DNA of 64,000 nt from Kondoa subrosea (lineage: Eukaryota): NCBI GenBank assembly GCA_039545335.1, contig BCIN01000003.1, forward strand, positions 1,375,941-1,439,940, in the 5' to 3' direction. The position numbers were made by a program, and so were the translations under genes. This document shows, piece after piece, positions 408 through 62,301 of the stretch. How positions within the stretch are numbered: position 1 is the stretch's first letter; each line of letters begins with the position of its first letter. The notes beneath the pieces were generated by a model. The model ran no database searches, had not been told where the DNA came from, and worked only from the letters and a program-made list of their open reading frames with translations.

Positions 408-3400
408 TTATGACTGCTGCAGTGATGCTTGATACGCTTTCTGCGCCAGTTCCACCGCTTCCGAAACTTTACTGACTTCTGTTCCAATCCCTTGACCAGA
501 TTCATCTTTCCCTCCACCTTTGCCTTGCAATACATCAGCAACACTTGCAAGCCATGTCTTGGCGGTGAAAGTCTTTGATACTTCTGCTTTCGGCAAGCAT
601 GTGACATAGTAGATTTTGCCCTCGCTAGCATCTACAGAGAACAGGAAAGCGGGTTTGGACAGAGTTTGAGCTTGCTTCAGACCAGCTTGAAGCGCCTGCA
701 AGCGACGAACCACATCAAACGGGCTCTGTATTATACTTAAGCCATTAATACACACCTTCATATTCGATCCAGCTTCTACTTGAGCAATATACGCGCGCTC
801 GTTTGGGTTCTCCTTAAAGTAAGAAGAGATGCCGTTGGAAAGCTAGTCACTTCTCAGCTAACATTAGATCAACTCCGCACGAGCACTCACTTCTGTTATC
901 AGAAGTTTGTCTTGAGCTTTCGACTGAGCATCGAGATCCCGTTTGAAGGCAGCGCTGGCATCTTTGAGGTGAGACTTCCGTATCAATGAGCCGTCCAGTT
1001 GATTCAGTTCCTACATAGGAAATGGGTATAGCTCCAAATTAATTGATAACCACTTACCGCGGTGAAGAGCTTGTACGCGGCTTCTTGCGCTTTCGCATCA
1101 GGTAACTTCTTCAATTCTTCCAAACGAGCTTCCATCTCTTGACATCTTTGATGCGCTTCTCGTGCTTTTTCTCCCGTAACACCTATGATTCTTCGGATAC
1201 CTTTGGCGATTCCAGTCTCTTCTGTGATGGTGAAATCTTTTATATCTCCGGTCTTAGCGACGTGTCTATTTCCATACATCAGCAATACTAAAGGCAACGA
1301 TCCAAAAAATTACTAACGTTCCACCGCAGAACTCTACACTAGTCGAGCGCCATTTTGGATTTGTAATATCTTTGGCAATCTCGTCCACCGAGAATTCCAG
1401 TGTCACAACTCTGACTGGATCAGGATATGCTTCGCCGAAAACAGCACGAAGACCAGGAATATCATGAGCTTGTTTGAGCTGCATTTCCTTGCTATACACT
1501 CGAACGTTCTTGTTGACCCATTCGGTGCAGATAGATTCGATCTGCGTCAATTCCTGAACAGTGACTGGCCCTTTGTGCGAGAAATCGAAACGTAGTTTCG
1601 TTGCCGCTACAAGAGAGCCTTTCTGGTCGATATGGTCGCCCAGTACTTCCCTCAGGCCGAAATTGAGGATGTGTGTCGCGGTGTGGTTGCTTTGTAAAGG
1701 TCGCCGCCGGTTCTATCCAATTTTTAGCGATGTCATTGACACAAAAGAATGCGAGATATACCTCATCGTAAGTACAAATGACTTCATCATTTACCTTCAG
1801 GTTGCCATCTTGTAGAGTTCCAATGTGCACAACATAGCCGCTGAACACTTGCACATCCGTTACATTGAATGCAGCTGAACCATCGATGATAATCCGTCCC
1901 GTGTCGGCTTCTTGTCCTCCTGATTCTGCGTAGAAGTTTGTACGATCCAGTATAAGACCCATTGGCTCGCCGCGTGGTATCGATTCTGTAGCATCAATGA
2001 AAGAGTTCTTGTGGAAGATAGCTTTAACATTGCTTGTGGTGTTGCCGAGTTCTGTCAGAAGGTGTGCAAGACTCAGCGATATTGCGGCAGAGCTTGATAC
2101 GACTGACCATATTTAGCTTGATCGTCTGTTTTCGGCACTTCGACCATCTTTTCCAGCTGACCGATAGCATGCACGTCCAGCTTTACCAAATCAGCAGCTC
2201 CGGTCTTCGCAACACCTTTCGAAGCTTCTTTACTCGCTGCCTGAGCAGCTTCGAACTCTTTCTGATTCACACTTAAGCCGACTTCTTCAGCCATTAGCAG
2301 AGTAAGATCAACTGGGAAACCATAAGTATCGTATAATTGCCAGACATCTTTGCCGTCCAGTTCTTTTTGCTTATTTTCAAGCGCACGAGCAGCATATTGA
2401 TCAAAGAGTTTCTCGCCACGATCTAGTGTTCGAGCAAAAGAAGCTTCTTCTTCGTCCAGCAATTCCTTGATGGCTTCAGTCTTCCGTGTGATCTCAGGGA
2501 AGACGTCCCCCTGCATCACACAAGAGATTCTTCAACTAAGTAGATCACCCGAGGACTACTGCACGCACCATCTGAGCAACAAGCGTGGGCATCAGAGTAC
2601 TGAAGAAGCTGCCTATCTGAACGCCAAACTTCTTTCTCGCATATCTCGCCCCTCTCCTCAGGATTCTACGAAGCACATAACCTCTTCCAACATTATCCGG
2701 CACACCACCGTCGCTCAGAGCAAACGTCAACGTCCGCACGTGATCCGCAACGACTCTATAAGCAGTATCAACGCCATCTGTATCTTCTTCTCCCAATTTT
2801 CCACCATAAGGTTTAGCTCCAGTAAGCTCTTGAATTCGAGCGAAGAGAGGAGAAAAGACATCTGTATCGTAATTGGAAGATTTGTCTTGTAAAACAGAAA
2901 CCAATCTTTCGAAACCCATTCCAGTATCAACGTGCTTAGCAGGTAAACCACGAAGACTTCCATCTTGTTCCCTGTTGTACTGAATAAACACATTGTTCCA
3001 GATTTCTAGTACGAGTGGATCATCCGCGTTGACTAATTCAGCAGCGTTTCTTCCTCCAACTCGATCGTAGTGAATTTCAGAACAAGGTCCACATGGTCCA
3101 GTGGCACCCATTTCCCAAAAGTTGTCTTTCGCATTGCCAGTGACGATATGATCTTGCTTCACTCCAAGCGATAACCAAATGTCTCTCGTCTCATTATCTG
3201 GTTCCAAGCCTTGTGAGGCATCCCCTTCAAAGTAAGAAACATAGAGTCGATCAGCAGGCAGACCGTATACTTCGGTGAGCAGTTTCCAAGACATGGTTAA
3301 TGCTTCTCGCTTGAAATAGTCGCCAAAGGACCAATTGCCCAACATCTCGAAGCTGAACACCAATACTTAGAAAAGATGCTGCATAAAGGATAAAGACGCT

Positions 3401-4103
3401 TACAAAGTGTGATGATACTATATTCCATGCTCAGCATCATGAGACTTGCAGTCGCGCTTAAACTTACTGTATCTTTGCCAACATCATCCAGATCTGAATG
3501 ATGCTCACAATTCAGCTACATTCTATGACTGTATGGAAGAGACGCTAACCATTGTGCTTGCCTATCTCACCTCACATCAGCTATCTTCTCGATTATAGCA
3601 GGCAGGACAAGCTTTACCTCCAGCACGAATACATTTCTGACTGTTGACTGCTCTCTTTAGTGAAGCAAAGCTTGAGTTTGGGTCCACAGTTCCCAAGAAA
3701 ATAGATTTGTATTGATTCATGCCTGTCATCGAGTCCGTCCTCAGAATACTCTACAAATCACAGCAATAAAGCCACACCGACCAGCGTTGACGAAGAGAAG
3801 AGTAGGATCCTCATAGGGAATGACAGAAGCAGAGGGTACAAAAGTATGCTGATGACTCTGTTGAAAGTATTCGAAGAAAGTAGAGCGAACTTTGGATGCT
3901 GGCCAATCACCAAATTGAGAGCTCGTTGCTGTAGACATCTTGATCACCTTGTTGTTCCGCTCAGGGCTGGACAGAGATAGAGATTTGGATTTGTGCAAGT
4001 TTCGACTTTGACTTAGCGTGAGAAGCTGAGATCTAGCTATTGGTATAGAGCTCAAGACTGGTATACGACTAGACGAGCTAAATAAGCGTAAGCTCTTGAG
4101 CAT
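408..4103 (-). CDS. ALA1: Alanyl-tRNA synthetase, multi-exon, with N-terminal mitochondrial-type extension
   Basis: Spliced motifs [110 protein letters not shown] (editing domain) and GKGGGK. All introns read are GT-AG; stop at 408-410. Confidence 0.97.
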
Positions 4104-4362: not shown

Positions 4363-5688
4363 CTACCTTCTCTCGCTTCTGTAATCTATGTCACCATAAT
4401 AAAGGGTTGGTCGGCGAATCGGTAGAGATGCAGGAAGAGATTGGCGACCGCGAGGTCCTTGAGGGTAAGAAGGGACAGGTCCATAGCTCCTGGTTCTGGA
4501 ATGACCAATCGGAGGTGACGTTGGAGCTGCGAATGGAGGTGAACTGGGATGAAAATTAGTATTGCGAATCGGAGGCGGAGGAGGCCAGGGTACAGAAGAT
4601 GGAACGCTAGGATCGATGAACATAGAACGAGGTCTAGAAGGTAAAATTGGTGGATTGAAAGTAGTGCTTGATGGAGCAATAGAATTGACGCTAGGCGGAC
4701 TTCTTCTGCGGGAATGCGTGGACTGATGTATATACGCAGCTGGCCCGATCGGTATGTATTCTCTTGCCCGCTGAGGTTCTGCTGACTTGGCTCTAGTTGG
4801 ACTTCTTTCACTAGGTTGTGCATTTGTTGTAGCTTGATTCGCAATTGGAGACGCCTTTGCTTGTTCTGGTTCCGGACTCCCCCAAGGACAGACCTCATCG
4901 GGCGCAGAGCTGGATACAGAAACATCGTCCGGCGTGCTTGCGCGAGAGATCGCTCGATTGAGAGATGTATAGCTGGAAAAGGTGATATCTGAAATTTCGG
5001 CAGTAAGAGGAGATACAGAAGAGGAAGAGGAAATTGTTGAGATCGCTTGCTTCATTTCTGCCGATGTAGCTTCGGGCGCTTTCGAAGCAGTTGCTGCCAA
5101 AAGTTTGCGTAGCGCTTCCTTCACTTCATTAGGTGCATTTCGGAAGCGCTGCGAGGGTGTAGCTCGGTTGTCAGGTGAAGAAGACTTAATTGGAATAGGC
5201 TGCGGTACGGGTGTTGCAAGAGATTGCGAAGGCGGTTCATCGACATCCAGCTCTCCTTCTTCCCGTTGCCTCAATCCTTTGGCCTGCTCTATCAGGGCTT
5301 GCTTCCGCCTCATTGACAATTCTTCTATCACTTCCTCGCCAAGAGCTTCGTCCTTGCCGAATGGAGTGTACTGCAATGCAAGAAGCCTTGCCGATGAGAG
5401 CGATTGTAATGGAGGAAGATGAGAAACAGAAGCAAAGGAGAGATCAATCAGGTGATGCTGTGCGGGAGGAGGACATTCGCAGAGGGACAATGGATCCGCT
5501 TCTACAGCTCTGGCTTGCCTCTTCATCCAGCTCCTTCGAGCCATTCTTCTGAAGTTCTCATCAATAGCTGAGTCATCATACAAAAGCTGATACAGGTCGA
5601 TAGCGGCAAGAAGAGCAGATGGAAGTGTATCGAGCTTGGCCAGCGTGAAGTCATAGCTCTTGAAAGGAAGCACATCGTAGTCTTGCAT
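4363..5688 (-). CDS. Uncharacterised 441-aa intronless protein: helical N-terminal domain plus Pro/Ser-rich disordered tail; paralogue of 6159-8282
   Basis: Long uninterrupted ORF with ATG at 5688; its first ~135 aa align by eye with the neighbouring gene. Confidence 0.8.
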   Translation of the reverse strand: MQDYDVLPFKSYDFTLAKLDTLPSALLAAIDLYQLLYDDSAIDENFRRMARRSWMKRQARAVEADPLSLCECPPPAQHHLIDLSFASVSHLPPLQSLSSARLLALQYTPFGKDEALGEEVIEELSMRRKQALIEQAKGLRQREEGELDVDEPPSQSLATPVPQPIPIKSSSPDNRATPSQRFRNAPNEVKEALRKLLAATASKAPEATSAEMKQAISTISSSSSVSPLTAEISDITFSSYTSLNRAISRASTPDDVSVSSSAPDEVCPWGSPEPEQAKASPIANQATTNAQPSERSPTRAKSAEPQRAREYIPIGPAAYIHQSTHSRRRSPPSVNSIAPSSTTFNPPILPSRPRSMFIDPSVPSSVPWPPPPPIRNTNFHPSSPPFAAPTSPPIGHSRTRSYGPVPSYPQGPRGRQSLPASLPIRRPTLYYGDIDYRSERR

Positions 5689-6158
5689 TGTGACTACAGA
5701 CCTCCTTCAAAAGCCATATGACAATAGCCCGGGCAGTCAGACCCACCTCAAGGTGAAATACTGAATTTCTCCTCCTAGCCTCGTCCTCGAAATCCAGATG
5801 TAATCCGCCTAGGGGGTATCAACACGGCTGTAGTAGGTATATATGGGCCTTTGGGTATCTCGGGTGGCCTGGGTCAAGCAACATCAAGCGGACCGAGACA
5901 TGCTTTAAGTTCTTACATAATCTATACCCTATCATAGCATGCAATAATGAGATGTGCGATATATATACAGAGGAAGACACCAAAGAATGCAGGGAAGAAA
6001 GCAATCAAACAAATTTACATAAGGCAAGACAATTGCTAAACAGCAACTTTCGTGCATCACTAAAACGCTGCAGTAGCGAAGTCCTATAGATCTTTAAACT
6101 TAGCTACGCCTCTGTACACAGAAGGCGACGAACACTTTGAATCCGACCTTTTGCCAAA

Positions 6159-8282
6159 CTAGCGATATTGCATTGGGCTCCTGAATTCTGAATGCGGAGC
6201 TGGTCTCGGCGGAAATTGAGATTCGTTAGGGCGCTTCGTAGGTGGATTAAGAGTGTTCGTAGCAGTAGAAGCAGAAGCAGAAGGCGATACAAGAGGAGGG
6301 AAGAATATGCCAGGAGAAGCGGTGTAAGGATTCAACTGCCATGACGATGCTGGAGGAGCTGAAGAAGAAGAAGAAGAAGAGCCATATACGAAGTTCGTTT
6401 GCTGTAGGTGAGGAGTTGTCTCGGCGAGTAAACGAGCTGTAGATGCTTGCAAGTTTTGTGGTGCAACTGCAGCTGGAGTGTAAGAGGACTGCGAAGATAG
6501 AGGTTTAGGAACAGGCGCAATGCAAGAGGACTGCGGTGGCTTGGCTGAAATGGCAGCTGAAATGAAAGAGAATGGAACAGGTGGTCGATCGAAAGGCAAT
6601 TGAGGCCGAGAAGGTAAACCGGCGGAAGCAGAAACTGCATTGTGTTGCAATTGTACGGGAGCCGAAGAGGATTGAGCTGTGGACGAGTAGAGAATACTGT
6701 TTGAGCCAGAAGCATGCCGAGATTGACTCTTAACTGTTGTAGCCTTGTTCTGCTTAGATGCTCCGCGTATCGCGTGTTTTGTTAAGCGGAATTGCAACCA
6801 ATTGACTTCCTTCGGAATAACCGCATCCCATACCATAGTGATACCCATTTTCTTCAGCTTCTTCGGCTTCAAAAGCGTAGCTTCCACTTTGATCGGAACG
6901 CTTGCAGGTGTGCAGGCATTACCGTGAGCTTCCACTGCCCGTTTCGCTTCTTCTCCACTCTTGTACCATACAACAGCAGCCGACTCCAGCGATGTAAGTT
7001 CATTCTTGACGATGGACCGACAAGTATTCTCACGTAGGAGCTGGAAAGCCAGCGGTTCTGGACACTTTGCTGTTCGGGTAAGAAACTGTAGTAGTTTGTC
7101 GGAATCCATCGCGACACCGATACGAGCAAGAAGGATAGCTGGGAAAGTTTGGCTTGACGGCGGCGCTACATCGGGAAGGCTTATGATGATATCGATTTGT
7201 TTGCTCTGCTTCTCGTCTCGGTGCGGAAATTCCGCAGGTCCAGCTGCTTGACTTCGATAAGACTTAATGATGGTTCTAGATGTTGTCGCGTAGTCTCTTT
7301 TGGTCTTTCGGCTGTCAAGAGAATCGATGACCGGAAGGACAATTGGGGGAAGTGGACAAGCCGGTTTGGGAAGCGGACCAGAACGAAGTCGAGGATCACT
7401 CGTCACAGTGTGGATTGATTGACTGGGGATTGCTGTTTGCGCTGAAGTGCCGTCGGACTGCTGCTGAACGACAGATGCACTCTGAATCGTTTGTAGGTGA
7501 TTAATTCTTTTTTGCAGCGGTTCAGACTGTGCGTCTCCAGAGGCTGCTGCTGCCGTAGCGGGAGAAGTAGCAGAAGTTGCCGTAGCTTGAACCAGTTTGG
7601 CTAAAGCAGCATGTACATCTGCAGGCGCTTGTGCTAGATTGCGTTTTGGAGAGCCGCGCCTATCTACTGGAGAAGATTCGAACTGCTTTGGAGTGCTTTG
7701 CCGGGCTACTGCAACAGGCTCGAGGAAGGCTGGATCCAATGGAATCATAGCACCACTCTTTCCGCCAGTCCCTTGATCGTGAGATTCTGACTTGACAGCT
7801 GTTGGCTGAATATCTGTGTTCGATGATGCACCAAGCTCTTGCTCCGTCCCACTCTGTACTAGCCTAGATGCCTCTGTGACCTGCAGCATAGCTTTCCGTC
7901 TCCTTAGTTGCAGCTCCTCAAGTACATCTTCTTGCAGCTCTTCATCCTCCGCTAAGCCCGTGAATTTGATTGCCAAGAGTTGCGCGCTTGAAAGACTCCT
8001 GATGTCAAGTGCTTCCTTTTCAACCTTTTCAGCGAAACTCAAGTCAAGCAGATGATGGTCTTCTGGGGTTGGGTCTTCTTGCAAGCTGATTCCACGCTCG
8101 AGAGCACGATTTGATCTGAGGAGCCAAAGCCGTTTAGCCTGTTTGAGAAGGCGAGCGTTTGCAGGTTGCTCTTCATACAGTGAGAAGTAGAGCTCAATGG
8201 AAGCCAGGACTGCGCTTGGCAGTGCTGAGAGAGTATTTGCTGTATAGGGATGCTTCAACGGCAGAGTATCGTACCCTGACAT
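6159..8282 (-). CDS. Uncharacterised ~707-aa intronless protein: shared N-terminal domain, possible degenerate RRM, Pro/Ser-rich tail
   Basis: Part of ORF 6159..8423. The ATG at 8282 (MSGYDTLPLK) aligns with the start of the paralogue (MQDYDVLPFK), so it is taken as the start. Confidence 0.8.
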   Translation of the reverse strand: MSGYDTLPLKHPYTANTLSALPSAVLASIELYFSLYEEQPANARLLKQAKRLWLLRSNRALERGISLQEDPTPEDHHLLDLSFAEKVEKEALDIRSLSSAQLLAIKFTGLAEDEELQEDVLEELQLRRRKAMLQVTEASRLVQSGTEQELGASSNTDIQPTAVKSESHDQGTGGKSGAMIPLDPAFLEPVAVARQSTPKQFESSPVDRRGSPKRNLAQAPADVHAALAKLVQATATSATSPATAAAASGDAQSEPLQKRINHLQTIQSASVVQQQSDGTSAQTAIPSQSIHTVTSDPRLRSGPLPKPACPLPPIVLPVIDSLDSRKTKRDYATTSRTIIKSYRSQAAGPAEFPHRDEKQSKQIDIIISLPDVAPPSSQTFPAILLARIGVAMDSDKLLQFLTRTAKCPEPLAFQLLRENTCRSIVKNELTSLESAAVVWYKSGEEAKRAVEAHGNACTPASVPIKVEATLLKPKKLKKMGITMVWDAVIPKEVNWLQFRLTKHAIRGASKQNKATTVKSQSRHASGSNSILYSSTAQSSSAPVQLQHNAVSASAGLPSRPQLPFDRPPVPFSFISAAISAKPPQSSCIAPVPKPLSSQSSYTPAAVAPQNLQASTARLLAETTPHLQQTNFVYGSSSSSSSAPPASSWQLNPYTASPGIFFPPLVSPSASASTATNTLNPPTKRPNESQFPPRPAPHSEFRSPMQYR

Positions 8283-8573
8283 GGCTGCTCGAAGTAAACC
8301 AAAGCGAGAACCTTTTTGTTTGCAAAATTGGCCATAACAAAGGCAGCTACCAGATAGTACTATTATCATGACCGTCGCGAAAGGCCGTCTCGCGGGCCCC
8401 GATAAGGCAGAGAGTCTGATCAATGAACGATTTAAGCGTGCCGAAACCTTCGGCCTTCTTCTAAAACATCGGCTAGAGCTTTGAAGACTCCTTTTCCTGT
8501 GCGACGACTCGCTATATACTTCATTGTCGATATCAGCCTCCGATCCATACCGCTATACTGAGCCGGTATCAAA

Positions 8574-12795: not shown

Positions 12796-13407
12796 CCCAT
12801 GCGAGGGAAGGCTGTATGTGGTATGATGTGGTAAGGGAGAATCTGTGGAAGCAAGAGACGCGGGAGGGCAGCAGCGAATAGATTAACACGAATAAGGCAA
12901 AACAACAAAGGGGCGGACATTTTGATCGACGAGGGACCTGGAATCCTCAAATAAGGCTTAAATTAGAGGTGACTTCAGCAGGTACGGAAAGCCTCTTATC
13001 AACCAATCAAACCACAAGTAGGCCGGATGCAGCAAACAGGGAGCAAGAATTGAGCCATACAATGATAAATTCGATATTTTCGTGCATATATGTCGAGGAT
13101 CTCAAAGCTCTGGCTCATTGTGGCATCCATTCGCGTCTGTGAAAGCATGGTCTGTCAGCTCGCAATCAGGTTACATAGATAGATGCTTGTACGAGTCAAA
13201 GAAGTGCGGTTTTCGTTTCACCGACTGCGGCTTGCCTCTCCGTCGGCCCAGCTGCACACACGCCCAGCTGTATATAGCCTCAGAGGCTGTCTAATCAGTA
13301 TCAAGAGGGCATATTTTGACCACCAGCACCGCTGTTACCCCGGCTGAGAAATCTCTTATCTGAGATTCTATGTATCTACCCCTCTTCTCTCTTTGCACTC
13401 TTCCTCT

Positions 13408-16352
13408 ATGACTGCCAGAACTCGTAACTTGAGCTCTCTTTACCGGACATTGCGCTTTGCTAGTACTTCAAGCGCTGTCGTGCCAGCTGCAAGCAGTTCT
13501 AAAGTCACTCAACATGCGGTTGTATCTACGTTCGACCTCTTCTCGTTCGTACACAGGCATACGTTCTGCCGCTTCATCTAATGCTTCCAAAACAGGATTG
13601 GCGTAGGTCCTTCATCGAGTCATACAGTTGGACCTTGGAGAGCAGCCAGTATCTTCGTCAATTCTCTTCGAGATGCAAATGTCTTGCGACACGTCAAGAC
13701 ACTCAAAGTAGCCTTGTACGGCAGTCTGGCTGCAACAGGCAAAGGTCAGATCTGACGGGCATGATAAGAGACTATTGTTTATATCGTGTTTCACCGAAGG
13801 TCATTTGTCACCTGAAGCTTTGATGAGTATGTTGCTCACTCGTGTTTTGCTGAGTAATTACTGGCTGATGCTTGGCTCTCTCAGTGGGATTTGAAGGAGA
13901 AGACTGTGAAACCATTGACACCGAGTAAGCCGCGAAACAATTTCAGCGACATGTGATCTTAAGGTAATGCGACAGCACTATAGTACCTCGATACAAGGCG
14001 ATAGTGGATCACAAACGACTTTTACTCGGGGGCGAACATCAGATTGACTTTTCGATGACTAGAGATTTTACTTTTTACTATGATCGAACTCTTGAAGTCC
14101 ATCCGAATGGCATGGCTTTCTCTTGCTATTCTGTAGATGGCGAATTGCTTGCAAGCAAGTAAGTCCGGCTCTTCCCATAAGTCAGTATTACGCTTATCGT
14201 CGCCAGCACCTACTTCTCAGTCGGTGGCGGCTTTGTTGTGAACGAGAAGACTGAATTTGCGGGCGAGAATGTGTGAATTTCTGTGGATGCCCTTGTCGTG
14301 TCAACTAACGCATCGGAATTAGCTATACTACAAACAAATCAAAGCCGCAGAAGCCGGATCTGCGCGCAAAGATCCTGCGCATACACAAGCGATTTCAGAT
14401 CCACAAAAGCTGCAGATCGAAGGTCAAGTAGACTCAAATGCGAAAATCAATATTTCGCCTCCTTCTAAAGATCCACCTTTCCTTTTCGATTCTGGTGACT
14501 CGCTTTTGGAGCTCACGCAGAAACATAACGTTAGTCTACCTTCGCTTGCGGAAATAAGAGGACTGAGCATTACGTCTAGATGACGATTGCGCAAATGTGA
14601 GCTCTCAGCGGTCTAGAGAACGGGACTGATTGATTTGGCATTTAGAGTGTACGAGAATGAACTTCATTACCTATCGGCCAGCGAAGTGCGATCGAAATGT
14701 ACGTTTCTTATACTCCTGAAGTTGGCCTGAGCAGATGTTGTTTCCCTAGTATTGGGTCTTTACGGAGTAATGGATGATGCTATTAGGAAAGGTGTCAGTT
14801 CAACGGAAGATATCCTACCTGGAGGATTGCGAGTGAAACGACGTGCAAAAGGTCTATATCAGCGGTGAGCCGCAATCTGGTAAAGCCTGGGGTTGAATTT
14901 AAGATTTGTCGTAGACTCACTCGAGGTTTCTATACGGCGAATGAAGAACCCAAACGCTTCCTACCTGCTGAAGCGAGCAACCCGGCATTATTATCAGGAA
15001 CGACGCAATACGATATTCTGACTCGCCAATCGAGCTCTGTGCCAGTTGTCGGTCTTCCAGATCACCCACTCAGACCAGTAGCACCTCGCAAAACTACCTT
15101 TCCTGCATTGGATCTTCTCTCTTGTTATGCAATAGCAGTAAATGAAGTCAACGCAGCTGGAGGTCGAATAGTTACAAGTGTGAGTCGATCCGCCTTTGAG
15201 CTTCGACTACTGTGTCTGACTCGTCTGTCAACTTTAAGCCGACCAACGGCGCCAGCGGGTGTGTTTGAGAGCCTTTTCAGTAGCAAGTTCGCTCATGTCT
15301 TTGCTTCTTGACTGCCATAGTGTTATTCCTGCCGTCTTGAAATACCTCATCGAGTTCATCAGTGAAGAACCCGAGCGAGATATCCAGACCTTCTTACTCA
15401 CTTCAGCTGCAATCGTAGGAGACACTCGTTATACCAATCTCCTTTCGCTTATGCTTTCAACCTCAAATTTAGGGAATGTTGTTCAAAAGAGGAGCTACAA
15501 TCTCAGCGGCAGAAGGTAAGACTGCCGCTTGCCCTTCTCAAGTGAGGCTGAACATCTATTAGGTGGATGTATGGCTGAAGGTGAAGCCTTTTCAATTCAC
15601 ACTGGGTTACATTTGATGGTGGTTATAGTTGGCGTAGCTTGCTCCATGGCCAGTGCTGGATTCGCGGCTTGTTTGGGAGCTTCTCCGGCCGTCATAGAAA
15701 ATGCAGCAGAGTAGGGTATTTCACTTTCTCTGGATCAAATGTTGATTCCTCCAAACAGGATTGGCATAGAACATAATTTGGGTAAGATATTTGCCTACAA
15801 CATAATGCACATTTTGATAGTCATACAGGATTAACATGCGACCCTCAAGAAGGATTAGTACAAGTTCCTTGTTAGTTGCCAATCCGAGGTTCGGCTCTCA
15901 TTTGGCTAACATGGAAGACTAGGTATCGAGCGCAACGCACTAGGAGCTGTGAAAGCTATTACGGCTGCTCAATTGGCGATTGCTTCAGGTACAACTCAGC
16001 TTCACTCCTTACTCCTTGGACACGGGAAACTGACGGAATTCCTGTAGGTGATTATGAAGCTCGAGTCTCGCTCGATCAGGCCATGTAAGCGAAAACTGTC
16101 GGTGACAATGGTCTGCTTACAGCTAGGTTTCAGATCTGCAATGAGACAAACAGCCTTCGACATGAAATCTGATTACAAGGTTCATTTTACCTCTTCGACT
16201 AATTGCCAATCACTGATGTATAGTATACTACAGGAAACGAGCAGAGCAGATAAGTTATCACTTTAAAGCGCTGCTGCCGCATCAAACTCATTGGCAGTCT
16301 ACGTCTCGCAGTTGCTGGAGTCAGAATTAGCTCAGCTGTTCCCGAATGCTAG
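13408..16352 (+). CDS. Iron-sulfur-dependent L-serine dehydratase (SdaA-type, fused beta+alpha), about 23 introns, mitochondrial-type presequence
   Basis: Spliced motifs [112 protein letters not shown] and YKETSRAGLA. All three cluster-ligating Cys are present; stop TAG at 16350-16352. Confidence 0.95.
16250..16302 (+). other. Putative U2-type AT-AC spliceosomal intron (53 nt)
   Basis: CAG|ATAAGT...ACTCAT...TCTAC|GT; removing it gives YKETSRAGLAV in frame to the stop codon. Confidence 0.8.
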
Positions 16353-16463
16353 AAGATTTGGTAGTGAACTCTGTGACTGTATCGTTGTCTCACCTCTATG
16401 CAGCAGCACAATCAGGAATTCCAATGTCTCTGCTTTTGTGCATGAACCGTGACATATTCGAGA

Positions 16464-18608
16464 ATGGCTCTGTTTAGAGCAATACCCTCTGAGCTCCAAT
16501 ACCTCAGCAGCAGATACCTGAGTGCTCGGCGTTATACTGGGGCTGCAGCAATCTCAAGCCAATCAAACTTGCCAACGACAAGCAGCAGATATTCAAGACT
16601 TCGAGAAAGGCTGCAAGAGCTGCTGGTATTCTATGAAACGCATTACCCTGGGCAGGAGCAATGGCTAAGACGCCTCAAGTGGGCTCTGAATGATTTGGGA
16701 GAGCGCAGGCCAAAAGTAACAGGTTAGTGACAACAATGCACAGTCCGGTTCAAGAGGAGCTGAAACGTAGCAGTACTTGGTGATGATCTTAGTGGATCTG
16801 ATATTCTGGTGTCTGCTTTGCTGGATGAACCTTTTTCAAGCGATTCCAGCAAGTCTCAAGTACTGAAACAGAGGCTGCAACGGCAGCAGCTGACACCGCT
16901 TCATATAAGGTACATTTGAGGATTACTAGCCAGAGAACTTCTGACTGAGTAACCGTAGCTATGGCACCACGAATATACTGCAAGAAAACCAAATGTCGAT
17001 CAATTCACCTTGGCTCCAAAAGGGCCAGTTCGACCTGCAAGAACTGCATATAAAACGGAAACCTGACACATTGGAAAGATTTATATCCATTTCCGAGGCC
17101 TTATTGGATGTGTGCTATACTAGTGACATTTTGGTCGTAGCGATATCGGATGTTCAGTCTCTGAAGAAGTATCACTACTTTCTCTCGCAGCTTGAAAAGA
17201 AACGCGACATATACTTCGTCTGTAATACAATCGCTCATGATGCCAATGCAGCTTTGGCGCATCTGCAATCCCAGCTAGAACAAACTTGGCCTCAGAAGCG
17301 TCAAGACATCCCTCTTCGACCTTTGATCCCCTACTCCAGTCGTAAGGCATCAGAAGCCTTGCAGAACCTTCAAGTGACCGCCAACCCAAATACACCTTCT
17401 TCTCCTGTAGATCCAATAAGCCAATTCTCTGCCCTCTTTTCTTCCAGCAATGTACCAGAAATAGCCGATACCATCACCAATGCAGTCAGCAATCTTCAAC
17501 TTCGCGGAGAACGTAGCTTTCAGCTAGAAACTTCTCTGCTTCTCGCTTTATGTTCAGCGGAAACAGCTTTATCCTCTACCGAATTTGCGCAAGAAGAAGT
17601 TCACACAGCACAAAACAAGACACAGCATGTTGAGCATCTACTACATGAGCAAAAGCAAGATATAGAAGAAGAATTAGGGTTCACTTCGGCTGGTGCTTTG
17701 ACATTACCTCCGACTCTGGAAAATGAAGGCAAGCAAACTTTACGGAATGTGCTAGATACGAAGTTAGCGTGGTGGAAACTACCCATTGGCGGAGCAGACG
17801 ATGTATTTGCGGATATGTCACAAGCTGCCAACTCTTTCTACCGATCAGCGGAATGCAAGGTCAGCTAATCTCGTTCAAATGGTCCGTCAAGTAGCTGATC
17901 TGTAAAGAAATAGCTTGCTTTTGAGAGCGGGAAATTAGTGGCAGCCAAAGCTGAATCAGACAGAATAGTTCAAGATCTGCTCGATGACGATTTAATCAAC
18001 ACCAAATCTTACCGCTCCTCAATAACAGATAATGAATTGGCACAGCTAGTCGAGCGATCTACACCAATCCAACCTTCTTCTTTACTTGAACCTATTTACC
18101 GTCGCCGGCAACTCTTCTCCTGCATCGGTGGTCCTATCGAATACCTACAATCTAAAGCTCAGACTCTGGTTTTACAAACATACACTGTGATAGCGAGCAC
18201 AACAGCCTTATCGTACGGCGCTTTCATAAGCAGTACAACGAGTTTACAAACTTCTTTGGCCTTCTCTGTTTTCGGTACTGTCTTCAGCGCTTGGCAATTG
18301 CAGAAAGGTTGGAGCAAAGCCCAGAGAAGATTCTTCCAGAATTACGATAGAATAGAAAAAGGTTTAGCCTATGATTTACAGGTGCATTTTCTATTGTATG
18401 ACTTCGACAACTGACTTGCTCATGAGAATCCTTCTAAATCCAGGCAACAGCGCGGAAAGTTCTGGCAGATCAAGTCTTTTTCAAATCTACTGCAACAACA
18501 CAAAACCTGAACATCCGACTGAAGGAGAAGGGGAAACAGGTTTCGTCCTTAGCGCAGGAGATTCGGGAATTGCATGCGAAGACGGTAAAGCTTTATGAAG
18601 GGAAATAA
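16464..18608 (+). CDS. Mmc1-like mitochondrial dynamin-superfamily pseudoenzyme (tentative)
   Basis: Arg/Ser-rich presequence-like N-terminus; degenerate P-loop VLGDDLSGSDILVSALLDEP; LAWWKLP..ADDV motif; C-terminal hydrophobic hairpin then helical tail. Four GT-AG introns; stop TAA at 18606-18608. Confidence 0.6.
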
Positions 18609-59155: not shown

Positions 59156-62100
59156 TTACGCATTGTCGAAAGCCCACGTAACTTCACGAAACAGTGCTGC
59201 GTAATCGTAGCCTGACTCGGCTGTATGCTTGCGTTTTGTACCAGAATTTAGAGAATCTGTAGTTGTAGGCAATTCTTTTGGTTTGCTGGTTGCAGGAGGA
59301 GTACCAAGAATATCGGCCGACTCAGGAGAAGAGTGTACTGTACTTGATAATTCTGGTGTGGCGGCATTGTCAACTTTCGTTGACATACCAAAGAGAGACC
59401 AATCGATGTCCAATATAGACGAAGCATTTGCTACTGAAGAGGGTTTGGCTTCACGCCTCGCCGGCGCAACCATAATGTCAGTCGGTAAGTTGAAGCCAGG
59501 CGCAGGTGTGAGGAAGTTTATGCTGGAAGCGTCTCGTACAATTGGCGGCAAGACAGGTTGAGATTTCGCATCGGTGCCCAGAAGCTGGTCATAGTCAGCA
59601 AAGGACACTTGCTTTCGCTTGGTGCGATAACTCACATCTGCTCTGAGCAAATTAGCAGTTGTAAGAGGTACTCCAGATCCAACAGCATTGTTCAAACAAG
59701 CATGTAAAGCATTCAAGCTGTTTTCCACAAACGTTTCTGGATGATCTACTGCATCCTTCATCTCCTTTCTTCTTTTCGCAGCAGGATCATCGCTCGTGGA
59801 TGGTTTGACCGGATCGACGACCAAAACATCATCTGAAATTCCAGATTTGCTCAATTCAGCTGTTCTTTTGTTTGTGGGTTTTGTTTTGAGCGGTGCAGTT
59901 TTGCGTGCTTGTGGCTTCCCAGGTGAAGCAGGAAGTGGTTTGAAAGGAGATGCAGCATTAGCAGGTTCGAGTAGTTCAGCAGCGGGAGTTTTGGCTGGTG
60001 AATCTGCTGCTCCTGCACTAGGTGAATTGGAAGCGTTGGTAAGAGGAGACCCGTATGTCGAGGTTGTACGACGTTGCTTAGGTGGTGGTGGAGGTCTTAA
60101 ATCTTCTCTTTGCAATCCAGGTCGGATCCCATTTTTGAGCGCTTCTCTGGAGAAACCGTCTGTGCTTTCTTTTGGTGGAGGAGCAGAGACAATGGATTGC
60201 TGCTGCTGTTGTTGCTGCTGCTGTTGGACAGCAGGAAGGCGAGATCGAACATAAGTGTTGACTTGCTCCATTGTTTGGCGCATGCTTGTCAATTCTTGTA
60301 TTCCATAGGTAAATATATTCTGTTGAACCATATTAATAGCTTCTCGGATCCCAACGTACTGGTCAATGTCAACATTAGCGTTCCAATTCTAGCTGGGTAT
60401 ACGTGCAGAGCTCACAGCATTGACTGCATTGCGTATCGGACCTGAAGGATCGTTGCCAAGAGGCAATACTCGTGTGAGTATAGGCAGAACTTCTCTCGTT
60501 TCCCGAGCTGTTGTCGTTATCCTTGAGCAGAATTGTAGGATCTGAGTTTTCTCCTCGTTAGACAGATTCAATTGAGCTCGGTTTGCTGCATCAACGCTAT
60601 CAGCATAAATAAGCACATTAATTCGAGTCAGACACACGTCTAGTCGCAGCCAGCTGCTGTTCCAAAACATTGATCAAGTTCTCTTCTTCTGCCGTAGCAC
60701 CGTGAGGATTCTTCCTCTGCTGTTGCTGTTGCACTGGTTGTGGTTGACCTTGCGTGGTTTGAGATGGTTGAGAAGGCATAAGTTCAATAACTCTTCTGAT
60801 CCAAGCTTTCTCAAACCGAGAAACATAAAGGTTATAAGCCCTCATTACATTCTGAACGATTTTCAAAGTTTGTTCTTGATCCATTTGATCATTGATATAG
60901 TTCATCACTTTTAGAATATGAAGCCAATTTCCTTGACGTGCGTTCAGGGCATCAATTCCACCAGAAGAAACGACCAGTTTGAACAACATGGCTAGATTGA
61001 TTTCGATTTTATCGATACGTGGTAAGACGCCGGCTGCGAAATTTGGGATATTCTGAACTCCATTGTTTGTCAGGTAAGTATGCAAGTGAGTGTAGAATTC
61101 AGCTGGCTCGGGCAAAGATTGTTTCAAGTGGATTCTTTGTGCTTCGGTCAACGGCATGGGTAGAGCTTGCTGTTGCTGCTGCTGGGGCTGCGAAGGTGGT
61201 TGCTGAGGTGGTTGTTGTTGACGAGATTGCTGATTGGACATAGCAGGAGAAGATTGGATTGGCGGAGGAAGACGTTGTGCTTGCACTGGAGGAGTCGCAG
61301 TACGATCAACTTGTTGCTGCTGTTGCGGCTGCTGTTGCTGTGTTGGTGGAGTTTGCGACATCAGCATTGAAGGTGTCATGCGGCAATTTGCTATTTGAGC
61401 ATGAATATGCTCTTTGGGTCCAAACTGCTTGTAAAATTGTGTGAGTGCTTGAGTGAGTTGTTGCATTCGATCTCTGATTCCTTGCGATTCGGCGACAAGT
61501 TGCTGTCTTTCAGCTTCTGTCAGAGGATGGCGAGGTATCGGAGTACCTTGCACAGTATTGTTTGGAGGGAAAGAAAGTGCTTTGGACATATTCTCATTTA
61601 AAGCTTGAGCGATATTCTGGCTCTCCGCTTGAAGTCGTTGTGCACCCATAGTGTATCTTAGATATCCGCCGAGCTGCCAGAGCGGAGCAGGTGGATATTG
61701 GTATTGAGTAGGTTGCTGAATCTGGGTTTGCTGTTGCTGGGGAATTTGTTGAGGCAGTATTGGAGCAGATTGCTGGAGACCAGCTGTCATACCAGCTTGA
61801 GAGAACTGAGCAAAATTCTGTTGCTGTTGTTGTTGCGCTTGAATGAAAGCAGCCGGATTGAATTGCCCTTGTAATCCAGCAAGTGCTTGCCTGCGGTCCA
61901 AATTTATTTGAGGAGGTTGCTGCTGCTGGATATTATTGTTGTTCATAGGCTGCCTGGGAGGTTGCTGTGGACTATTGCTTTGCATGAGGGCATTCAGATC
62001 GGGAAAACTGTTTGCATTCATGCTAGCGTTTCGAGCCAAGTTGGCTGCTTGCAGCTGTTGTTGCTGATAAGCTTGACGTGCAGCATCAGGCATCTGTAAG

Positions 62101-62301
62101 GTCGTCAGCCGTTGATCGAGGCAACAAAGATCGGAAGAAACCTACATTGCCTGTAGCTTGCTGATAGATTCCAGGCTGCTGGCCAGTGAAGGACTGAGCT
62201 TGAAACATATTGTTCATGGCGAAATTTGCAGCTGGCTGGGAATTGTTCATCGCTGCAAAGTAAGCCTGAACAGAAGCATTGTCTAGACCATTTGTGTTCA
62301 T
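59156..62301 (-). CDS. Gln-rich ARID/BRIGHT-domain protein (putative transcriptional or chromatin regulator)
   Basis: FYTHLHTYL..NG...PRIDKIEINLAMLFKLVVSSGGID.....W..I....RAYNLYVSRFE is an ARID signature; poly-Q tracts; four exons joined by GT-AG introns. Confidence 0.82.
60197..60226 (-). repeat. CAG/CAA trinucleotide tract encoding poly-Gln (10 Q) in the ARID gene
   Basis: Plus strand reads ttgctgctgctgttgttgctgctgctgttg; similar shorter tracts occur near 61170, 61310 and 61820. Confidence 0.9.

Follow-up and report, generated by a model that had tools for sequence, protein, structure and literature searches.

The last intron of a basidiomycete gene for Fe-S L-serine dehydratase as a probable U2-dependent AT-AC intron

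The dehydratase gene and its surroundings

The window, by which we mean the whole 64-kb stretch of DNA analysed here, carries on its plus strand a gene for an Fe-S L-serine dehydratase, running from start to stop codon at 13408-16352 and divided into 23 exons and 22 introns. Its structure was obtained by spliced alignment of a Cronartium homologue, P0017, to positions 13300-16500 with AT-AC introns permitted, which gave a full-length alignment with a score of 1415. The model opens with the ATG at 13408, reaches the end of the gene at 16352 and, once joined, encodes 597 amino acids with no internal stop. Twenty-one of the introns are GT-AG introns of 47-62 nt; the remaining one, the last, is proposed to occupy 16250-16302 and is the main subject of this report. 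As 21 introns are canonical and no internal stop occurs, the gene is intact and not a decaying pseudogene.

The identity of the product rests on several kinds of evidence. Two matches to the Pfam domain SDH_beta (PF03315) in the exons score above the cut-off, at 72.6 and 33.3 bits, while SDH_alpha (PF03313) is matched weakly and below the cut-off (17.5 bits) by one exon, which is only a short piece. Both domains are found on every full-length homologue, the combination that marks the single-chain [4Fe-4S] L-serine dehydratases. The Legionella enzyme of known structure (PDB 4RQO) is clearly related to P0017, and wherever an alignment of 19 fungal proteins has an invariant cysteine column, the window model has a cysteine as well. 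Upstream of the aligned region, the first exon (13408-13544) adds an N-terminal extension to the protein; this is basic, contains many Ser, Thr and Ala residues and may be a mitochondrial targeting sequence.

Rust and agaric proteins make up the 30 best-scoring homologues of the dehydratase, which share 53-60% identity with it over the length of the model, the rusts ranking slightly above the agarics. A second gene, for alanyl-tRNA synthetase (411-3929, minus strand), was modelled on the Mixia protein P0108 and contains 12 GT-AG introns of 47-60 nt. For one of its exons (2548-3360, minus strand), identity is 77-83% with 119 of the 120 proteins among the matches listed and 58% with the other; setting aside one record labelled as orchid, the named matches belong to basidiomycetes and cover all three subphyla. 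From the protein matches of these two genes we infer that the window is basidiomycete DNA with no close relative in the protein collection.

Elsewhere, the minus strand contains two long open frames side by side (4363-5706 and 6159-8552), which begin with visibly similar N-terminal stretches before becoming rich in Ser and Pro and may be tandem paralogues of unknown function. A further two long open frames at 59156-62141 (minus strand) contain long glutamine runs and Pro/Gln-rich sequence.

Boundaries of the last intron and the encoded C-terminus

The penultimate exon (16234-16249, plus strand, as are all features of this region) is 16 nt long, encodes E-T-S-R-A together with the first base of a Gly codon, and ends in ...GCAG. 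It runs into a 5' splice site, CAG/ATAAGT (16247-16255), that is identical to CAG/GTAAGT save for the A at +1. The proposed intron (16250-16302, 53 nt, phase 1) begins with AT at 16250-16251 and closes with TCTAC, the final AC lying at 16301-16302. Within it, a branch-site-like CTCAT (16287-16291) places a putative branch-point adenosine 12 nt short of the proposed 3' end, and a CAG that would be bypassed lies at 16295-16297, 7 nt past that adenosine and 5 nt upstream of the 3' end. The last exon (16303-16352) starts with GT CTC GCA GTT, supplying the two missing bases of the Gly codon followed by L-A-V...V-P-E-C, and its frame stays open to TGC TAG at 16347-16352, the stop codon occupying 16350-16352. 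Read directly from the window, these bases are as the preliminary description gave them, and the protein end that it derived by removing the 53 nt, ETSRAGLAV...VPEC and a stop, is reproduced in the joined model.

The choice of boundaries was examined in a census of all GT-AG, GC-AG and AT-AC pairs between 16237 and 16344 that leave the frame open to the stop codon. Three GT-AG pairs (all with the donor at 16254), four GC-AG pairs and two AT-AC pairs are in frame, so that the preliminary description was inexact in naming 16254-16297 as the only in-frame GT-AG alternative. Among all these pairs, 16250-16302 alone produces G-L-A after K-E-T-S-x-x. Each of the four GC-AG pairs, like the two further GT-AG pairs, removes conserved residues. 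By eye, the combinations AT-AG (16250-16297), GT-AC (16254-16302) and GA-AG (16249-16297) each shift the frame off VPEC. No other junction can create the Gly codon, split after its first base in the AT-AC reading, because the downstream exon offers only GT before CTC GCA.

The canonical competitor is the pair at 16254-16297, a phase 2 intron of 44 nt, whose use would place D-N-L-R where the conserved Gly is expected and would make the AT and AC termini a coincidence. This is the pair picked by a spliced alignment restricted to canonical introns, and it leaves both the frame and the terminal VPEC in place, as does the AT-AC pair. The difference in alignment score is small, with 1415 for AT-AC, after an extra penalty of 4 points, against 1414 for GT-AG, a gain of about 5 points. 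The general frequency of splice-site types also favours the canonical pair, with GT-AG reported for 98.7% of annotated fungal introns (PMC7072748). Since both readings stay in frame, the protein argument comes down to one invariant Gly and the length of the tail that follows.

The columns K, E, T and S, and likewise G, L and A, do not vary in the alignment of the 19 homologues from fungi, and the Legionella enzyme (PDB 4RQO) reads ...KETSMGGLAVN. When the same alignment served as the query for a scan of metagenomes, KET[SA]..GLA was encoded in all 80 loci listed out of at least 590 matches; most of these are uninterrupted bacterial-type genes and were used for motif conservation only, and none of the 80 is an interrupted fungal copy usable for comparing introns. 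One locus, L050:356-2436, stands alone among the 80 listed of at least 590 in that its match extends over clearly more DNA, 2081 nt, than the roughly 590 residues matched require; its C-terminal part is uninterrupted, and the copy may contain an interruption or an insert. The GT-AG pair would thus destroy a residue that is invariant in the 19 fungal proteins and in 80 of 80 loci among the matches listed. The finding that the AT-AC boundaries are the sole ones giving the conserved C-terminus, as first proposed, is upheld by this conservation together with the census.

Among 104 database homologues, 86 extend as far as KET[SA], and 74 of these carry the motif. The 12 exceptions (P0002, P0003, P0008, P0011, P0033, P0047, P0049, P0078, P0080, P0085, P0086 and P0088) all part from it directly after KETSLS and look like gene-model errors, for instance by read-through, by the skipping of codons or by fusion with a neighbour. 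Four of them omit G-L-A or G-L-A-T. Three, P0047, P0078 and P0080, which are models from the Rhizoctonia/Ceratobasidium group, continue as V-S... after KETSLS, which suggests a phase 0 GT donor before the Gly codon. In P0012, P0016 and P0046 the motif is kept and an intron after G-L-A is read through. The breaks after KETSLS and the read-through after G-L-A together indicate that introns of Agaricomycotina occupy at least two close, distinct positions here, and that the spot is often mis-annotated. A possibility that we consider unlikely is that non-canonical introns recur at the Gly codon in other basidiomycetes, which could account for the breaks in these 12 of 86 proteins.

Tail length, counted from the E of the motif to the last residue, is the second criterion. 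It is 21 residues in the AT-AC reading and 24 in the GT-AG reading, the latter falling outside the range of 19-23 residues that covers 70 homologues of the 74 with the motif; the four gene models beyond that range have tails of 28, 36, 36 and 817 residues. Tails of 14, 16 or 21 residues occur in 78 of the 80 metagenome loci among the matches listed. The model ends in Cys under either reading and so has the C-terminal cysteine tail of the family, Cys being the last residue in 66 of these 74 homologues. For the Legionella enzyme of known structure, this Cys is reported to serve as fourth ligand to the cluster (PMC12647591, which cites Thoden et al. 2014), for which reason the spacing within the tail is plausibly constrained.

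Splice signals and the spliceosome involved

The splice signals were compared with those of 33 local reference introns, comprising the 21 GT-AG introns of the dehydratase gene and the 12 of the alanyl-tRNA synthetase gene, and thus drawn from two genes only. Position weight matrices were built from this set, with donors scored without +1 and +2. On this scale the donor at 16250 reaches 5.9 bits, better than 32 of the 33 real donors, and all six positions scored (-3 to -1 and +4 to +6) fit CAG/GTAAGT. The donor of the 44-nt pair, TAA/GTTATC, scores -6.3 bits, below every one of the 33, and its GT is merely the +5 and +6 of the consensus-like ATAAGT. The preliminary description had likewise called this donor poor and its product a break in the motif. 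Acceptor contexts separate the two less sharply, at -0.1 for the AT-AC pair (better than 5 of 33) and -1.9 for the GT-AG pair (better than 2 of 33).

Length points the same way as the donors. The reference introns measure 47-62 nt with a mean of 52.7, which bears out the early remark that 53 nt is the typical intron size here, and the 44 nt of the GT-AG pair are fewer than in any of the 33. The CTCAT adenosine would lie 12 nt from the 3' end of the AT-AC intron and just 7 nt from the GT-AG acceptor, with CTNAY sequences near the 3' ends of the other reference introns standing 10-25 nt from the splice site; as 13 of the 33 have no CTNAY, the branch-site argument is a weak one. The bypassing of the CAG at 16295-16297, to which the preliminary description had drawn attention, turns out to be ordinary, since 11 of the 33 canonical introns likewise have an unused AG in the 12 nt leading up to their 3' site. 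Taking signals and protein together, we regard use of the 44-nt pair as unlikely. That AT and AC should by chance flank the junction at issue seems very improbable, a judgement reached by inference and not as a computed probability, because the junction that restores the Gly lies exactly at AT/AC and the six donor positions fit the consensus as well.

A different objection is that 16250-16302 might not be correctly removed at all, either because the gene is a young pseudogene or because the assembly is in error at both terminal bases. The non-canonical termini speak for such an account, and retention of the intron brings a stop ten codons after the start of the exon, with loss of the cysteine tail. 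Against this, the remaining 597 codons and 21 introns are undamaged, the donor lies in a near-perfect context, and two independent changes at the end bases that happened to yield the one non-canonical pair known to be splice-competent would be unlikely errors. We hold incorrect removal to be as improbable as use of the canonical pair.

The remaining question is which spliceosome would act on an intron of this kind. The minor spliceosome recognises U12-type donors with the consensus ATATCCTT and a branch box, TCCTTAAC, located 10-15 nt from the 3' end. Although AT-AC termini are classically tied to this machinery, the donor at 16250 agrees with the U12 consensus in 4 of 8 bases as against 5 of 6 for the U2 sequence GTAAGT. 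No stretch of 16250-16302 fits the branch box in more than 5 of 8 bases, and the best one begins at intron base 11, towards the 5' splice site and far from the 3' end. The defining pair of a U12-type AT-AC intron, the donor and a correctly placed branch box, is therefore lacking, and what is present instead is the set of features of a U2-type AT-AC II intron: AT and AC termini, a U2 donor apart from +1, and neither a U12 donor nor a U12 branch box. The host offers a further argument, as surveys reported in PMC10639083 came upon no convincing minor intron in either Ascomycota or Basidiomycota and describe minor introns and snRNAs as absent from Dikarya. A scan at Rfam gathering thresholds, covering the window alone, gave 0 matches within its 64 kb, a result that is uninformative on this point. 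The first account of the locus had judged the signals U2-like and had taken Dikarya to be without a minor spliceosome; the donor score and the consensus counts agree with the one, and the published surveys together with the basidiomycete host agree with the other. A U12-type intron is accordingly extremely unlikely.

We thus favour the reading of 16250-16302 as a genuine intron, spliceosomal and belonging to the U2-dependent AT-AC II class, with a probability of roughly 0.78; the boundaries, the signals and the fit to the protein are read from the sequence, and it is from these that removal in vivo, the branch point and the acting spliceosome are deduced. The major spliceosome would recognise the 5' site through its otherwise perfect fit to the U1- and U6-binding consensus, CAG/AUAAGU, and the branch would form at the adenosine of CTCAT or close to it. 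The second step would join the exons at the AC 12 nt downstream of that adenosine, the A at the first intron position being compatible with C, and not G, at the last. Use of the AC over the nearby AG would follow from the same rule, under which an A-first intron pairs with a C-last one (PMC1557818). The product would be an mRNA for the conserved ...KETSRAGLAV...VPEC end of the Fe-S L-serine dehydratase, its C-terminal Cys included.

Significance and comparison with known AT-AC introns

The relevance of the intron lies chiefly in the correct annotation of the dehydratase gene. A gene finder limited to GT-AG and GC-AG would pick the 44-nt pair, at the cost of three extra residues and the invariant Gly. 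If the AT-AC reading is true, the gene provides a further natural A-first/C-last intron removed by the major spliceosome, in a fungus without the minor one, and a natural instance of the pairing rule between first and last nucleotides. Descriptions of AT-AC II introns go back to the 1990s, and as fungal cases are also on record, no new question is opened by this one.

It had further been proposed that removal of the intron could be a rate-limiting or regulated step. In that case a slow or conditional splice would gate the C-terminal tail of the enzyme: unspliced RNA would give a protein that stops ten codons in and is missing the terminal Cys, the residue that fills the fourth iron site of the solved bacterial enzyme, and the balance between spliced and retained RNA would tune the active or self-inhibited enzyme. 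The sole ground for this idea, which we consider decidedly unlikely, is the less efficient splicing of A-first/C-last introns in test constructs (PMC1557818).

The U12-type AT-AC introns share with 16250-16302 their terminal dinucleotides only, since it has neither ATATCCTT as donor nor TCCTTAAC as branch box. The closer relatives are the U2-dependent AT-AC II introns, an established and very rare class for which PMC1557818 reports frequencies of 0.003-0.008% among human, mouse and fly introns. Like the human AT-AC II introns of SCN4A/SCN5A and TAF2 (Sheth et al. 2006, PMC1557818), the dehydratase intron has AT and AC termini, a U2-type donor and no U12 donor or branch box, and it falls within the operational definition given in that source, namely a good score on the U2 donor matrix with A at +1. 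Those introns are reported there to have cDNA support, two of them having been shown to need the major snRNAs, whereas 16250-16302 is known from its sequence; unlike them, it is a basidiomycete intron, 53 nt long, in a metabolic gene.

A second parallel is provided by engineered introns. In yeast and human test introns, the double mutants in which the first G is changed to A and the last G to C have the same terminal nucleotide pair as 16250-16302, and this A-first/C-last combination is reported to rescue splicing, less efficiently (PMC1557818). The dehydratase intron differs from these constructs in being natural.

Fungal examples come from several sources. AT-AC II cases have been hypothesised in fungal xylanase genes (PMC1557818), and AT-AC is listed as a splice-site subtype in a long-read annotation of Coprinopsis (10.1101/2024.05.10.593147). 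In Fusarium graminearum, a member of the Dikarya, AT-AC is reported among the non-canonical junctions seen by RNA-seq, and the seven non-canonical genes of Figure 7A of that study were confirmed by Sanger sequencing (PMC3577648); across annotated fungal introns, AT-AC accounts for 0.019% (PMC7072748). The fungal AT-AC introns of these last two reports lie in different genes and lineages from the one described here, and they resemble it in their very low frequency and in occurring in fungi without a minor spliceosome.
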